From assembly GCA_964016885.1 (NCBI GenBank), contig OZ024745.1:38750001-38814000 (forward strand): DNA of 64,000 nucleotides, read 5' to 3'. Position 1 is the first letter of the stretch; the number at the start of each line of letters is the position of its first letter. Shown piece after piece: positions 32,903-62,477 of the stretch. The notes under the pieces were generated by a model. It searched no databases. It saw nothing but the letters and a program-made list of their open reading frames with translations, and had not been told where the DNA came from. The position numbers were made by a program, and so were the translations under genes. The stretch is from Eledone cirrhosa. Taxonomy: Eukaryota.

Positions 32903-33171
32903 TATATAAAGAATGAATAATAACAGGTAGACATCATAAAAAGGTAGTTTATTCCGTGTGCTTACAAGTGTTTCCACGGTGGTACTGCAGCCTAGTTCCG
33001 CTACGTGCTAATTCACAAGTATTTGCAGAACTCGGATATCCAATGCGAGTTCTGCAAATACTTGTGAATTTGCACGTAGCGGAACTAGGCTGCAGTACCA
33101 CCGTGGAAACACTTGTAAGCACACGGAATAAACTACCTTTTTATGATGTCTACCTGTTATTATTCATTCTT

Positions 33172-33177
<6 letters not shown>
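32903..33177. repeat. Near-perfect palindrome: 132-bp arms (32903-33034 / 33046-33177), 11-nt loop
   Basis: Arms are exact reverse complements apart from one mismatch seen (gctaatt vs gcaaatt); embedded between (TA)n tracts. Confidence 0.95.
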
Positions 33178-33217
<40 letters not shown>

Positions 33218-33332
33218 CATATATATATACATATATATATATATATAACTTTGAATAACTTTGAAATGTTTTGGCCAGTATTGGCCCAGGCCACGTCTAA
33301 CTTAATAGCACCACCTGGCGAAGTCTTTCAAT

Positions 33333-36300
33333 TCAGGATTTGGGCACCATGGCCCATTCGAGAAGAGAATTACTGTTTGCGGAGACATATCCGGGTGTGG
33401 GTGGTTTGTCCGGGATTACTTGGAGGAATTTGTCCAAAGACTTCTTGAATTTTGTGTGGTCAGTTTCTGTTTTGACGTGTCCTGGTGTGATGTTGAAGAG
33501 AGCAGGGCCGATTGAGGTGAAATAATTGTGCCGTATTGTTGTTATGAGTTGCGATTTAGATTTTTGAATGGGACGGATAGCAAGGGGCCCAAGCCTTGGG
33601 TGTATCTTGAAGGCGATGCCAACATCATTTGGGCAGTGATGATGGAACATTTTCCACATCATGCAGATAATATAACGCTCACGGCGACGTTGGAGTGAGT
33701 AAAGTTTCAGGTTTTCTAATCGACCCCAGTAGTCAAGGTCTGACATGCCATCTATCTTTTTCGTGATTGCCCTTTGAGGAGCTTCAAGTTTCATGATACT
33801 TTGTTTCGTGTGGGGAGACCACAGTGGACAACAGTATTCAAGGTGTGGTCGGGCAAAAGTAGAGAAGAGAAGGATAATGGTGCGGGAATCTCTCGACTGG
33901 AAGGTTCTGTGGATCCAGGAACACATTCTGCGGGCCATGTCAACTTTGCTGCTTATATGCGTGGTCCAGCTTATGTTGCTGTCCACGGTTACTCCCAAGT
34001 CTCTGATGTTGTTAGATGCCACAAGAGTTTCCCCGGAGGGAAGGGAGTACGGGAGTTTCAGAGCATCCTCTTTTCCAAAGTGGATCAGTTCGAATTTGTC
34101 TTCGTTCAGTAACATGTTGTTCTTTTCCGCCCATTGGGTAACAGCCAGTAGGTCTGACTGAAGGCTTATCCGGTCATCCACGCCATTGATGACCTTTTGG
34201 AGCTTGGAATCATCAGCGAAAATTTTAATGTTGCTGTGTTTGATGATGTCAGTGATGTCATTAATATAGATGATGAAGAGAAGTGGGCCCAACACAGTGC
34301 CTTGTGGGACCCCACTACTGACTTTGGCTGGGCTGGATTTGACTCCCTCAACTACAACATGTTGGGTTCTGTTTGACAGGAAGCTCTTGATCCACTGCAG
34401 CAGCTTTCCAGTGACACCAATATTGGACAGCTTTCTCAGTAGAATGTTATAATCAACCCTGTCAAAGGCCTTGCTGAAATCAAGGTAGATAACATCAGTG
34501 TTGGAACCCTCTCCCAAGGCTCTCAAAATGTCATCAAAGTGATGCAGTAGCTGCGTTAGGCAATCCCTTCCATTACGGAATCCATGCTGGTTGGAGTTCA
34601 GCATATTGTTACTCTCAAGGAAGTGGGTCATTCGCGATCTCACCACTCGCTCAAATACCTTAATGATATGAGAGGTGAGTGAGATTGGACGGTAATTCAC
34701 GGCAAGGGATTTGTTTCCCTTTTTGAAAACTGGGACAACAGACTGGGATAGAAGGTTTTCTGGCACATATCCAGCATCCAGTGAGTTCCGCCACAGATTG
34801 ACAATAGGAGATGCAAGTTGGTGTTGACACGCCTTCAAGACACAAGCAGGGAACCTATCGGGACCTACTGCTGAATTATGCTTGATTTCCTTTATTGCCG
34901 CCAAGACATCAGGGGCGCCAAACGTTATGTCCGATAAGGTGTAATGGGGAGTAACATCGCCGATACAGCCCAGATCGGCCATATCAGGATTGCTGAAAAC
35001 AGAGCAGTATTGTTTCTGCAGTATCTCACCCATGGTTTTAGCATTGTCTTGAAGAGTGCCATTTTCATCAATTAGAGGGCCAACAGTAGAGCCAGTGATT
35101 TTGTGTTTTTTTGCAAATGAAAAGAACACTTTGGGATTGAGTTTGATCTTCTCAATGGCCCAGGCCTCTTCAGCTCTTCTCTGATTGTTGATGAGGGACA
35201 TTATGTTGTTTTGGAGGTTATGTTTTTTAATCTCTAGTGATGAAATGGCAGTCAAGTTGATGTGTTGCTGCTGACAGTATTTCAGCTTGTTGATTTTTTT
35301 GTTCGTTCTCTTAATTTTTCTGATGAGCGTTTTTCTATTTCTAGGGATTCTGCTCTTAGATTTGTTTATAGTTCTTAATGGGGTGTGTTTAGCACATATG
35401 TTTGTAACAGTGTCCACAAATGTCTGCCAGGACTTTTTGATGTTAGTGGGTGTATGAGTGTGCGTGAAGGACCAGTCGACATGTGCAAGATCATGACTGA
35501 TCGCTTCCCAGTTTGCATTGTGGAAATCCATAGCGTCAAACGGATGGACAGGAGAGATGACATTGGGTTTGTATATTGGACGGTGGAATCTCAGATCACA
35601 GAGAACCATGTCATGATCAGAGAGTAGAGTTTTCTCCACTGCAATATTGTGGATATTGTCAGTGTGATTGCTGAAAATTAAGTCTAGGACGTTTTTGTGG
35701 CACCTCGTTCGTTCGAGCACCAGTTGGGATAGGAAGAAATCATCCATGAAGTCAAGAAGCGATTCCACAGCTTCCCTGTCTGAGGTTGAGGCAGAAGAAC
35801 CTGGTGGCAGGCTGTTTGTGGACCAGTCAACTCCGGGGAGGTTGAAGTCCCCCATCATTAAGATGTTGTCAGGGTGACACTCTTGGATGAAACACTTTAT
35901 GCTGTTGAGGCATTCCTTGAAGCATGGTACAGGCGTTTGGGGTGGCCTATAGAGCCCAACTACTAATAGGTTGTTGGTTTGACTGAATAGAGTGACTGCT
36001 TCACAGTATCCATTAGTGAATATGTTCATAGCCTCTGTTGAGAAAGAATTATGGACATAAATGGCAGTTCCGCCCTTTCTTTTGCCAGCGCGATCAGCAC
36101 GGATGGCTTTGAAATTTTTCACTTTCACCTCGGCTTCCAAGTGGAGGTTACTGAGATGGGTTTCAGTGAGGACGAAGAAAGGGATGTGGTTTGGATGGAC
36201 ATCAATCCAGTCCTCCAGGAATTTGATCTTCCATTTTTGAGTATTGGTGGAAGGGCTGATGCCTTGGGCGTTAAGCAAAAATGTAGAGGCGAGAGTGGAT

Positions 36301-36353
36301 GGTTTTAATTGTTTTGGTGTGTTGCTAATTTGTTTGTTTGTTAATGGCAGCAA
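33333..36353 (-). CDS. LINE ORF2: AP endonuclease + reverse transcriptase (frame is open up to 36470)
   Basis: Uninterrupted. EN motifs NAQG, LTETHL, GLYRPP, MGDFN, LDLIF, SDH; RT motifs NYRPISLTS, QHGFR, YLDFSKAFD, GVPQGTVLGPLLF, FADD; CR1-like SLQRRRER. The annotated start is TTG, not ATG. Confidence 0.97.
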   Translation of the reverse strand: MLPLTNKQISNTPKQLKPSTLASTFLLNAQGISPSTNTQKWKIKFLEDWIDVHPNHIPFFVLTETHLSNLHLEAEVKVKNFKAIRADRAGKRKGGTAIYVHNSFSTEAMNIFTNGYCEAVTLFSQTNNLLVVGLYRPPQTPVPCFKECLNSIKCFIQECHPDNILMMGDFNLPGVDWSTNSLPPGSSASTSDREAVESLLDFMDDFFLSQLVLERTRCHKNVLDLIFSNHTDNIHNIAVEKTLLSDHDMVLCDLRFHRPIYKPNVISPVHPFDAMDFHNANWEAISHDLAHVDWSFTHTHTPTNIKKSWQTFVDTVTNICAKHTPLRTINKSKSRIPRNRKTLIRKIKRTNKKINKLKYCQQQHINLTAISSLEIKKHNLQNNIMSLINNQRRAEEAWAIEKIKLNPKVFFSFAKKHKITGSTVGPLIDENGTLQDNAKTMGEILQKQYCSVFSNPDMADLGCIGDVTPHYTLSDITFGAPDVLAAIKEIKHNSAVGPDRFPACVLKACQHQLASPIVNLWRNSLDAGYVPENLLSQSVVPVFKKGNKSLAVNYRPISLTSHIIKVFERVVRSRMTHFLESNNMLNSNQHGFRNGRDCLTQLLHHFDDILRALGEGSNTDVIYLDFSKAFDRVDYNILLRKLSNIGVTGKLLQWIKSFLSNRTQHVVVEGVKSSPAKVSSGVPQGTVLGPLLFIIYINDITDIIKHSNIKIFADDSKLQKVINGVDDRISLQSDLLAVTQWAEKNNMLLNEDKFELIHFGKEDALKLPYSLPSGETLVASNNIRDLGVTVDSNISWTTHISSKVDMARRMCSWIHRTFQSRDSRTIILLFSTFARPHLEYCCPLWSPHTKQSIMKLEAPQRAITKKIDGMSDLDYWGRLENLKLYSLQRRRERYIICMMWKMFHHHCPNDVGIAFKIHPRLGPLAIRPIQKSKSQLITTIRHNYFTSIGPALFNITPGHVKTETDHTKFKKSLDKFLQVIPDKPPTPGYVSANSNSLLEWAMVPKS

Positions 36354-37498
36354 TGGGAGTTTGTGCAGTGGGGTGATAGTGGAGGGTGGTGCTGGGTGAT
36401 AGCTCGAATGTTTTTTTCCAGTTCTTTTGCCAGATTCATTATGGCTAAAAAAGAGGAAGAATTTTCCTGTTTAGAAGACTGTTGGTGACTGTGGTAGTGG
36501 TTATTTTTATGTAGGCTATGGTTTTTGTTTTTGCTTTTATTTTTAATTTTATTTTCATTTGTCCGACGGGTCCCCGGGAGATGGGTAAAGGGACAATCCC
36601 GGTCAAAACACAATCTGTCTCGCAGGGAAAAACGGCAGATTTGTGGATTCCTTGTTTGAGTTATTGGTGGTTGTGTTGGTGTTAAATTAGAGTATGTATT
36701 ATGGTGGTGGCTGTTTGTGGGGATAGATCGTTTTGTCCTAGGTAAATGGGTGAATTTGCAGCCACTATCCGTACATATTCTATAGCGTAGAGAGTAGCGG
36801 CAAATGATGGGGTTTCGAGTGGGTGGGTATGTGGGTGTGTGTGTTGTGAGAGGTGTAGATGATGGTTTGGGTAGGATTATACGACCTTTGTGGACTGTGG
36901 GAGGGAGAGTTCTTGTACTGGTATTAGAAGGTAAATTCCTTGACATAGCAGTAGACGAAAATGTTGTAGTAGTAGTAGTAGTAGTAGTAGGCAGAGATGT
37001 TGGCAGTGGTGATGATTGGACTGCTGGGCCAGAGAAAGGAAGTGGCGTTTCATGCTGTGAGACAGAGGCTACTGGGGGGTCAATAGTTTCATTTAGTAGA
37101 TCGGCCATTGTTGATGAATCAAGGAGTGGTTCACACTGTTGTTGTCGTTGTTGTTGTTGTTGCTGCTGATGTTGATGTTGTTGTTGTAGCTGTTGTTGTT
37201 GTTGCTGTTGTAGCTGCTGTTGTTGTTGTTGCTGCTGCTGGACAGCATTCGAAGAGAAAACACACCGTAATTTATCCAAATGTTTATTGATTAATTTAAA
37301 AGCAATTTCGATTTGCTTTAATTTATTTTGAATCTGTTGTTCAGATCGAGTTTTCAAAAATTGAACTGTACGTTTAGCAATGTCGTTCAGAGATGAAGCA
37401 TCTATATCTTCTGTTTGGGAAAGGCAATGCCATGTGTTTATTAGAATGTCGATTTCATTATCAGACCAGTTCTGTTTGGATTTTTGCTGGTTAGCCAT
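36341..37498 (-). CDS. LINE ORF1: Myb/SANT-like N-terminus, polyQ, low-complexity linker, two CCCH-type zinc fingers
   Basis: 385-aa ATG-started ORF directly upstream of ORF2; WSDNEIDILINTW..RSEQQIQNKLK; CRYSLRYRICTDSGCKFTH and CRFSLRDRLCFDRDCPFTH (C-x8-C-x4-C-x3-H). Confidence 0.85.
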   Translation of the reverse strand: MANQQKSKQNWSDNEIDILINTWHCLSQTEDIDASSLNDIAKRTVQFLKTRSEQQIQNKLKQIEIAFKLINKHLDKLRCVFSSNAVQQQQQQQQQLQQQQQQQLQQQHQHQQQQQQQRQQQCEPLLDSSTMADLLNETIDPPVASVSQHETPLPFSGPAVQSSPLPTSLPTTTTTTTTTFSSTAMSRNLPSNTSTRTLPPTVHKGRIILPKPSSTPLTTHTPTYPPTRNPIICRYSLRYRICTDSGCKFTHLPRTKRSIPTNSHHHNTYSNLTPTQPPITQTRNPQICRFSLRDRLCFDRDCPFTHLPGTRRTNENKIKNKSKNKNHSLHKNNHYHSHQQSSKQENSSSFLAIMNLAKELEKNIRAITQHHPPLSPHCTNSHCCH

Positions 37499-37759
37499 TC
37501 TAGTTTTGAGTGTGTGTGTGTTTTAGTTAAGTATTTCAATATATATATATTTTTTTTAAAATTTATTTTTGATTTATTTTTGTTTTTTGTTTTTCTTGTG
37601 TGTGAGTGAGAAGAGTATATATATAAATATGAGTATATATATATATATATATGTATATTCTGGTTATTTGAAATTAATTAAGTTAATGAAAAGACGAAAG
37701 TATATAATAATAATTTGTAGTTAAAGGAAAATGTACTCACAAGTTCGAAAACACGTGGT

Positions 37760-37860
37760 TTCAAATATATAATAATATAGATGTATGTAAATGTATTAAC
37801 CGGTCAATTTTCAAATATATAATAATATAGATGTATGTAAATGTATTAACCGGTCAATTT
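37760..37860. repeat. Exact ~50-bp tandem duplication in the LINE 5'UTR
   Basis: ttcaaatatataataatatagatgtatgtaaatgtattaaccggtcaatt occurs twice back to back. Confidence 0.9.
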
Positions 37861-37967
37861 TTGTTTGTTTGGTTTTGTCTTGTGGTTTTGTTTTGTGGCT
37901 GTGTGACTTGCTGCTTACTCGGGGAGAGAAGTAGAAACACGTCCTTATACTTCAACTGCTCAACTGC

Positions 37968-39747
<1,780 letters not shown>

Positions 39748-39827
39748 TGTAAGAGAGTATTCTTTTCCTTTATCATCCACCTAGACATTTCAATACATAC
39801 ATATATATATACACATATACATATTTA

Positions 39828-39955
<128 letters not shown>

Positions 39956-40898: not shown

Positions 40899-41185
40899 TT
40901 ACATATAAGTGTGTATACGTACATACATATATGTATACAGACGTACAGTAGTATGTATGTATATATACATACATGCACACATATATATATGTACGTATGG
41001 ATTCACCGAACATTTATTATAATGCTCGGTGTGTTTGTAAATAAACATCCCGAATTCAGCCGTACAGTGTATACGATGGTTGCTAGACACTGTACGGCTT
41101 AATTCGGGATGTCGTTTTACAAACACACTGAGCATTATAATAAATGTTCGGCGAATCCATACGTACATATATATATGGGTGCTTG

Positions 41186-41247
<62 letters not shown>

Positions 41248-41297
41248 CTACTGTACTTCTGTATACATATATGTATGTACGTATACATACTTATATT
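40899..41297. repeat. Foldback inverted repeat of the same family as 7490-7722
   Basis: Arms ~40899-41070 and ~41087-41297 (ggattcaccgaacatttattataatgctc / gagcattataataaatgttcggcgaatcc). Confidence 0.9.
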
Positions 41298-60467: not shown

Positions 60468-62477
60468 AGTCTATGCCCCTACACTTCCACAAACCACCGC
60501 CCCACCCAGCAACCCATCCCCCACCCTAATGGAAATTGTGCAGCCCGATACCCGGGACGCAGAGAGGTAAGTGCCTTTTCTCTTCACCACCAACATGGCT
60601 GTGCTGAGAGTAGGCTGTTTGAATGCGCGTGGCCTAGGCTCAACTTGGAAGCAGGCAGTGCTTCTAAGTGACCTCGGGTCACAACGTATAGATGTGATGG
60701 TTATTTGCGAGGCCCGGATCAGCAACGTGCGACAGCTGTCCCCCACCTTTGATGACTTTGAGATGCACGCATCTCTCTGTCAGCCCGGATGTGGGGGTGG
60801 GGTTGTCGTTCTGCTGCAAAAACATCTGGGTCTCGCAACACAGATGGTACATTTGGACCCGGTGGGTCGACTAGTGGTTCTGGACCTTGGCAGTGGTAAA
60901 GGCAGAGCGTTTAGGTTGGTAGCCGCCTACGGCCCTTTCGGGTCAATGCGGCCGGACTTCTTCCATCGTCTGGAGACTTTTCTAGGGACGTCCCGCTCCT
61001 TGCTATTAGTGGGGGACTGGAATGGTATCCTAGATGCACTCTGGGACTACGTAGGGGCCTGTCCCGATAGAGAGGCGTGTAATAGCCTCAAACGGTTAAT
61101 CGGTCGATTTTACCTGGCCGATGGATATTGACTAGATTTTCCGACTGCGCCAACCTGGACTTGGGCAAAGCGTAGCGGATCATCTAGGTCGTACCTAGAT
61201 AGGTTATTGGTTGGAATTGAGGATAAGGACTTTTTAAGTTGTCCAACAATGCGCATGGTTGGCTATTCAGACCACAAGTTAGTGACCTGCATGATCAGCC
61301 TTGACAGAACTCATAGACAGGGACCCGGTTACTGGAAGCTCAACTTGTCCTTGCCGGCAAGTGGGGCTTACAGGGACCGGATTAGCACTTTAGTTGAGGA
61401 GCGGTTGACGGGCGCCATCGTCAACAGCAGGTGGTGGGGATCTCTCAAAAGAGAGATTAGAGGAGTCTCTATAGAATTTAGTAAGGAGTTAGCCTCGGAT
61501 AGAAATAGGAAGGAAAGGGAGTTGGTAGATAGTGTAGAAGAGGCAATTAAAATCAGCGACGTGGTCAGAGTGCTAGCGTCGAGATCAGCCCTGAGCCAGT
61601 TCTTCAACGCGAGACACGAAGGCTGCATCGTCCGAGGCGGGGTGCCTGCTCTGGGTGACGAGGGGACCAGAGCTGTTGGCTGGGCCCGTGTGACAGAAGC
61701 CAAAAGAGGGAGTAGATCCACTATCCGGTCTTTTCGAGAAAGGCTCTACAGATACGGGCGCCTGGGTAGGGACCCCTAGAAAAAGATCTGTCCCAGATGC
61801 GTGTGCGACGAGGAAACCTTGCACACGCATTGGTACACTGCTCGGGCATTGCCGATCTGTGGGGCTATGTCGAACGGCTGCTGTCAAGGGTGGGACCGAT
61901 CCGGCTGACCACCGAGTCTATTGTAACGATCAAGCCCCCTCCCCTCTTCAAAAACGAAGGAGAGGCGGTGTTTCTGTGCGTAATAGCCATGGCGAAAGAG
62001 GTTGTATGGTGGACGCGTCTAAAAGGACTGAGGTCTGACACCTTTCTCTCTGGCCAACAACTGGTCCGTTTCTTTCGATATCATTTCGGAAGAAGGATCA
62101 GGATGGAGAGAGAGGTGCTGCACCCCAGCCGTTTTTATGAAAGATGGGTGAAAGTGGCGAGAATGGCCCGTGTGAATGGGCCTTCACTCTACATCAGACT
62201 ATAGGTGAGGAAGATGAAAGACCAAGGGAGCACCCCTTCTCTGTGCTCCTGAGGAGAAGGGTTGCACACTTTTTTTCGGGGGTGTGTGCGACCCCCAAGG
62301 CGCCTCCTCTCTATTGAGGACTTTGTTATTAATTTTATTTTTTGTTATATTTTATTTTATTTTTAAATATTGTTATTGCCTCTTCCTTATTGAGGACGCC
62401 TTGTTTTGTAAACTCCCCCCCCCCCCCCATTGTACTTGTCCCACTTTTGATGCCCTGGTTGCAAATAAAAGAAACAT
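60468..62477 (+). mobile_element. Tx1/L1-clade element with internal deletion: AP endonuclease joined to the C-terminal zinc-finger region, RT absent
   Basis: ATG 60595: GCLNARGL, ICEAR, AAYGP, VGDWN, (stop 61129) TWTW..RSYLDR, YSDH, GPGYWKLN; from ~61735 RERLYRY..CPRC..EET..HALVHC; 3'UTR with AATAAA. Confidence 0.88.

Follow-up and report, generated by a model that had tools for sequence, protein, structure and literature searches.

The window, as we call the whole 64,000-nucleotide stretch of Eledone cirrhosa DNA that was analysed, holds on its minus strand a full-length retrotransposon lying between two TA-type arrays (Table 1). LINEs of the CR1 type have two open reading frames, and their 3' tail consists of short repeats with no poly(A). 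The same layout was found here, with ORF1 directly 5' of an ORF2 that encodes an endonuclease (APE; Pfam Exo_endo_phos_2, 1e-13) followed by a reverse transcriptase (RT; Pfam RVT_1, 5e-30), and with a tail of short repeats that lacks poly(A). The placement as CR1-type (Jockey superfamily) is made from domains and layout, the ORF2 trees containing no named clade references (CR1, CR1-Zenon, L2, Crack, Daphne). Because the tail overlaps the adjoining TA array, the 3' boundary is uncertain by 2 nt.

Table 1. Positions in the window of the family A element, its parts and its flanks
Feature	Position	Strand	Basis or remark
Full-length CR1-type LINE, family A (about 4.7 kb)	33246..37968	-	each end from 30 loci
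5' UTR, 470 bp	37499..37968	-	homologous to family B 5' UTR
50-bp tandem pair in 5' UTR	37759-37861	-	
Internal TA run in 5' UTR	37616-37658	-	
ORF1, 385 aa	36341..37498	-	
Myb/SANT-like domain, aa 9-84, three predicted helices	37247..37474	-	profiles, dN/dS
Gln-rich tract, 35 aa, CAA/CAG	37136..37240	-	
Thr/Pro/Ser-rich linker, aa 123-227	36818..37132	-	low pLDDT
CCCH finger 1, C-x8-C-x4-C-x3-H	36728..36817	-	third-finger type of the clade
CCCH finger 2	36563..36652	-	duplicate of finger 1
Lys/Asn-rich basic patch	36506..36550	-	sequence
ORF1 C-terminal helix (347-369 in model)	36383..36460	-	overlaps ORF2 frame start; motif common to relatives
U_UUU_UUA heptamer in ORF1 register (Phe-Leu motif)	36446..36452	-	candidate -1 ribosomal frameshift site
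ORF2 frame (-1 to ORF1), APE then RT	33333..36470	-	
APE endonuclease in ORF2	about 35586-36293	-	
RT in ORF2	33987-34718	-	Pfam
3' tail, two 10-nt repeats, without poly(A)	33246..33265	-	
TA-type array adjoining 5' end	37969..39954	.	
TA-type array adjoining 3' end	33172..33247	.	

The family to which this copy belongs, here called family A, is young, abundant and intact. The 3.0-Gb genome of E. cirrhosa gave 2140 candidate DNA matches, and the 40 that were scored are 96-100% identical. The N-terminal domain of ORF1 is 98-100% identical in all 150 scored copies, and of the 30 genomic copies with the best scores, 21 have an unbroken ORF1 (382-389 aa). Public sequencing runs that contain at least half of the element's words come from DNA or are of unstated kind; in RNA runs only small shares were present.

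Other features were seen in passing. Some family A copies (L003, L021-L023, L026, L027) have a tandem duplication of about 240 bp in the 5' UTR. A perfect inverted repeat with 106-bp arms (window 32903-33177) lies next to the 3' TA flank, and by eye similar fold-backs stand beside TA arrays at three other loci (L028, L030, L289). Also by eye, a roughly 390-bp imperfect inverted repeat at about 40900-41290 is MITE-like, and broken endonuclease-type LINE fragments at 60571-62204 on the plus strand are Tx1/L1-like.

Composition of the ORF1 protein

The original prediction, made from the window sequence, described ORF1 as an unusual architecture that joins a Myb/SANT-like domain, a glutamine-rich tract, a Thr/Pro-rich linker and tandem CCCH fingers. 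Its description of the sequence was accurate. The N-terminal W-S-x-x-E...W...RSxxQIxNKL pattern is present in full as W11-S-D-N-E15, W23 and RSEQQIQNKL (51-60); the tract of about 30 glutamines has 30 Q among its 35 aa (87-121); the 105 aa of the linker (123-227) include 24 T, 18 P and 15 S; and the two duplicated C-x8-C-x4-C-x3-H units, at 228-257 and 283-312, are identical at 20/31 residues.

The assignment of the head to the Myb/SANT-like group drew support from sequence profiles and none from fold searches. The window domain matches PF13837 (Myb_DNA-bind_4) with 23.1 bits (E=1e-4), below the Pfam cut-off of 27 bits, while two scanned copies of family B, an older sister family with the same ORF1 layout and about 56% identity to family A in this domain, score 31.3 and 32.7 bits, above it. 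A search of the genome with PF13837 returned 38 matches; the 30 of them that were retrieved include a small number of host genes and many family B copies. The head of a third family, D, is homologous to that of family A, though the match is weaker (30% identity, E=0.013); the ORF2 of family D is 40% identical to that of A, and its ORF1 has a Glu/Lys tract and one finger. Aligned profile to profile, the A, B and D heads together match seven host Myb/SANT-like domains with 88% probability (E=2.9e-6; reversed control E=0.17). The similarity of the window head to PF13837 proteins extends over three helices, but the helix-3 Trp that most host Myb/SANT-like proteins have is replaced in the alignment by Leu in A and B and by Arg in D, and the window head is carried by a retrotransposon. 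The domain is charge-neutral (10 K/R, 10 D/E).

The AlphaFold model of the head has helices at 13-27, 34-50 and 53-83 (pLDDT 71, pTM 0.44). Neither Foldseek nor VIA-align, run with this model, turned up a Myb or trihelix structure, the best match having a Z of 5.0 to generic helices; given the pTM of 0.44, this blank is compatible with a Myb fold. PDB sequence searches with the head gave nothing significant, and word-based homologue searches of low sensitivity, with whole ORF1 and with aa 1-85, gave no matches. In the ESM Atlas, aa 1-86 led to Myb/SANT-like clusters at 0.77-0.83, which we treat as leads only, and the whole protein had no usable match; a single-sequence AlphaFold model of whole ORF1 was poor (pLDDT 45). 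Between families A and B, dN/dS in the Myb-like region is 0.14-0.23 (about 0.17; dS 1.0-2.3, 10 copies), compared with 0.12-0.24 in the finger region and 0.15-0.17 in the endonuclease. Both the Myb-like and the finger regions are under selection. Within family A the counts are too few to read, the finger ratio of 4.3 resting on one synonymous variant. We consider it very probable that the head is a true Myb/SANT homologue.

The glutamine tract behaves differently. It varies from 33 to 40 codons across family A copies, with 28/31 indels in frame, is shorter and variable in family B, and is absent from family D, where the Glu/Lys tract takes its place. We reject it as a conserved functional module, and nothing in this distribution supports the specific role in condensate formation that had been proposed for it. 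The tract may instead be a flexible linker produced by slippage.

The ligands of the fingers and their spacing, C-x(6-10)-C-x(4-5)-C-x3-H, are conserved in the window ORF1, which scores 15.6 bits against Pfam zf-C3H1, below the cut-off of 20.9. Among the nearest relatives of ORF2 in metagenomes that have a readable ORF1, three (L091, L095, L096; 37-41% identity) encode three CCCH fingers, preceded in two of them by PHD-like modules. A finger profile run against 1.84 billion proteins gave 38 matches, mostly to this same ORF1 type with a PHD-like module and three CCCH fingers. A Myb Pfam match was present in none of the 38, many of which, the three closest (P0005, P0006, P0023) among them, are however fragments; that the clade commonly has the Myb layout is thus not supported. 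Both window fingers match the third finger of the three-finger array, and family D retains the first. We conclude that the fingers were inherited from a widespread array and that the Myb head was acquired. The description of the architecture as unusual therefore holds for the Myb head, which is its novel part and sets the protein apart from its relatives; the CCCH fingers are not new.

We compared the window ORF1 with examples of the PHD-like three-finger type (L091, L095, L096, P0012, P0018, P0031, P0041, and family C of E. cirrhosa). Shared with the window element are the third CCCH finger, the Phe-Leu motif and C-terminal helix, an ORF2 of 37-41% identity and, in relatives whose DNA was compared, the same heptamer (see below). 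The type differs in having three fingers, as opposed to a duplicated third (A, B) or the first alone (D), and in beginning with a helical module and a PHD-like finger where families A, B and D have the Myb/SANT-like head. Homology between that head and the helical module was considered and rejected (E=0.54 and 0.75, the latter for the A, B and D heads). Two three-finger ORF1s (P0015, P0034) have weak Tudor-knot/MBT matches at the N-terminus, a pattern that suggests further exchange of chromatin-reader modules. A short motif containing Cys is often found at the end of CCCH-type ORF1s (window 36344-36370; family D; many of P0010-P0042).

The ORF1-ORF2 junction

The first AUG of ORF2 lies at 36029, inside the APE domain, and in 7/8 CCCH-type families the first Met falls after the first APE motif. 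The overlap of the two frames contains a T_TTT_TTA heptamer in register with ORF1, and as U_UUU_UUA this is the shift site of HIV (PMC5009743). It is present in register in 8/8 CCCH-type families tested (11/12 sequences, the motif pattern having missed one B copy), compared with 4/32 other Phe-Leu pairs. In all eight families the -1 frame opens 2-42 codons upstream of the heptamer and runs into the endonuclease, so that an in-register X_XXY_YYZ heptamer coincides in each with an ORF2 open in the -1 frame. Among genomic copies the heptamer is kept in 28/30 of family A, 25/28 of B, 19/19 of C and 19/19 of D. Pseudoknot-free folding of the RNA 3' of the heptamer revealed no strong stimulatory structure, with a z below -2 in only 1/8 families (z=-1.61 in the window).

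Translation of ORF2 as a frameshift fusion with ORF1 is probable on this evidence. The predicted product of slippage would have about 350+1038 aa (~1,390) in the order Myb-CCCH-APE-RT. In the original prediction the ORF1 protein could bridge element RNA and target DNA; since the slip site would put the Myb head on the same chain as the APE and RT, such bridging may be unnecessary.

Outside these families, ORF2 is in the -1 frame in 15/20 further CR1-like elements from metagenomes that have an ORF1 (L099-L157), and the overlap of 12 of these 15 contains an in-register slippery heptamer, a count taken with no chance control.

Insertion into TA arrays

A 3' end was scored as TA-associated if it lay in a TA-type array of 20 bp or more. 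By this rule, 30/30 family A ends are in TA arrays, as are 20/20 in family D (one of 21 loci was without the end) and, under a slightly looser offset that gives 5/29 for family C, 11/12 in family B (12 of 20 fetched regions had the 3' end). The PHD-type family C has 4/29, one duplicate flank having been dropped, and a further CR1 family, E, has 3/32, with ORF1 not recovered from two copies; the background rate is 4.6-7.0%. For the Myb families against family C a Fisher test gives p=4e-17, although copies are not independent events. An earlier TA metric at a 0.8 threshold had given 15/30 and 13/30, missing interrupted arrays. At the 5' ends of family A, 20/30 meet the same TA rule.

The three CR1-CCCH families with a Myb head, all found in TA arrays, lie on two separate ORF2 branches. 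In the ORF2 tree family D groups with C and L096, and A and B group with L091. A single clade of A, B and D was rejected for whole ORF2 (AU p=8.6e-15), for the APE alone (p=0.021) and for RT plus C-terminus (p=2e-4). Tree and TA counts together indicate that the TA preference follows the ORF1 head and not ORF2 ancestry, a comparison in which Myb is represented by only two lineages and PHD by one.

The same genome also contains an RTE family (L306-L335) that has one ORF and a TAGA-type tail. Of its ends, 23/31 lie in TA arrays when scored with the looser offset; 20 stretches of this family were scanned and gave no Myb match. TA preference in this genome therefore does not require a Myb domain. 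Of the proposal that the Myb domain possibly tethers insertion to TA microsatellites, the association with TA arrays is upheld and follows Myb among the CR1-CCCH families tested, but an element that lacks the domain has the preference as well. That the Myb/SANT-like domain, as a putative DNA-binding module, contributes to TA preference is a tentative reading, one that we would stop somewhat short of calling probable.

The RTE result is also what would be expected if the endonuclease set the preference. Target choice in LINEs with an APE is mainly set by that enzyme (PMC4494074), and the TA preference could have evolved separately in A/B and in D, with the Myb-like domain acting as a tether to chromatin or protein that replaced the PHD without reading TA. 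The N-terminal slot that takes PHD and weak Tudor-knot/MBT matches, which are chromatin readers, fits such a tether, and so does a Myb-like domain that is not net basic. The cost is that TA specificity must then arise twice, both times in lineages bearing Myb, in APE domains that are not sisters (33% identity between A and D, and the AU result above), while family C, a nearer relative of D, is not TA-bound. We regard this as a serious possibility, if a somewhat doubtful one.

An explanation that involves no protein domain is improbable. TA arrays could be fragile or nick-prone sites used through short pairing with the 3' tail, or could grow after insertion; the arrays are long and variable, and the RTE family with its TAGA-type tail would fit. 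The tails of families C and E, however, could also pair with TA over 2-3 nt, and these families are near background. Moreover, rare variant units are shared by both flanks, and informative duplications of 38 and 29 bp were found in 2/13 pairs, which indicates that the arrays were present before insertion. Myb/SANT-like proteins are commonly transcription regulators, and the 5' UTRs of A and B hold internal TA runs and repeats, but it is highly improbable that the domain instead binds the element's own 5' UTR to regulate transcription, since the examined stretch of the family D 5' UTR is CT-rich, unlike that of A, and D keeps both the domain and the TA preference.

The reading that we prefer joins the Myb head to the frameshift. 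The window element would be a young, TA-array CR1 LINE in which a Myb head replaces the PHD-like module and a frameshift connects it to the enzyme, helping to hold that enzyme on (TA)n; as a whole this scheme falls just short of being probable. Most ribosomes would stop at the ORF1 stop codon and release free ORF1 protein, which would probably coat the element RNA by means of its CCCH fingers and basic patch. A minority would slip by -1 at U_UUU_UUA and produce the Myb-linker-CCCH-APE-RT chain, whose Myb head would help to hold the enzyme on the array while it nicks the array and primes reverse transcription. A broader version, in which the Myb/SANT-like cassette is a portable (TA)n-targeting module that moves between distant CR1 backbones, the frameshift assembling an R2-like, DNA-reading enzyme from ORF1 parts and family C, left with only a non-coding Myb remnant, representing the untargeted state, seems to us rather unlikely.

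The function of ORF1 in CR1-type LINEs and the making of an ORF2 that lacks an AUG are both poorly resolved. One genome here offers young families with and without the Myb head, on separate ORF2 branches, with near 100% and 14% of ends in TA arrays, and these opposite target habits make possible a direct swap test of targeting by an ORF1 domain. Such targeting would contrast with the usual credit given to the endonuclease. Thanks to the conserved slip site, a simple reporter can test the ORF1-ORF2 fusion. Should targeting and fusion both prove true, an ORF1 domain would give LINE insertion its address among simple repeats, and that address label could be swapped.

Relation to described retrotransposons

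The ORF1s of CR1/L2-lineage LINEs have been sorted into types I-V, with domain shuffling and transfer of ORF1 between lineages (Metcalfe and Casane 2014, PMC4120745). These elements resemble the window element in having two ORFs, an APE-RT enzyme and a modular, exchangeable ORF1. The domain table of that paper contains only PHD, RRM, CCHC, Tnp22, esterase and zf/lz, and a term search of its whole text found "CCCH", "Myb" and "SANT" 0 times. The window ORF1 has no Pfam match to RRM+CCHC, Tnp22, PHD or esterase at E up to 1, which places it outside types I-IV, and in this scheme it would be type V (unclassified).

The closest parallels in domain order and target lie outside CR1. R2 carries a zinc finger and a Myb at the N-terminus of the RT chain (PMC5678591), and R2 and other LINEs with a restriction-like endonuclease are described as target-specific, with an order of Myb and zinc fingers similar to that in the predicted window fusion. 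R2 has, however, one ORF and a C-terminal restriction-like endonuclease, whereas the window element has two ORFs, an APE and CCCH fingers and so is not of the R2 type. TRAS, like the window element, is an APE LINE on a simple repeat with a Myb domain (PMC5537684, PMC4700185), which has been suggested to aid targeting (PMC5537684); its Myb is in Pol (ORF2) and its target is the telomeric repeat. For HeT-A, the ORF1 protein is reported to direct localisation, and TRAS/SART and HeT-A/TART, which we compared with the window ORF1, are not CR1 (PMC5537684, PMC4700185). Kibi and Koshi are also APE LINEs that insert in microsatellites, but they belong to the Tx1 clade, their targets are (TC)n and (TTC)n, and their specificity is ascribed to the endonuclease (PMC4494074). 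The Myb protein of Harbinger differs in its partner, a DDE transposase where the window element has an APE-RT.

In the literature searched, which leaves Repbase, Dfam and subscription journals aside, we came across neither a CR1 whose ORF1 is of Myb or CCCH type nor one that targets TA, and no frameshift in CR1. Repeat libraries probably contain these Myb/CCCH CR1 families under unnamed entries. As far as we have checked, the contrast in TA targeting between Myb and PHD families is new.

Two further observations concern the ends of related elements. At the 3' end, a tail containing CAAAGT is common to families A and B and to the distant relatives L091 and L093, and in L091 a different tandem repeat follows it. 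At the 5' end, family C (L215, L219, L222) contains a non-coding Myb-like remnant that precedes the ORF1 match by about 860 bp, within the 5' UTR. This remnant is close to the A/B domain, has no start codon, reaches a stop before helix 3 and is followed by a Pro/Ser-rich stretch; it lies upstream of an intact PHD-type ORF1 in 3/15 loci, a fourth having a shorter piece, and suggests that Myb and PHD families have recombined.
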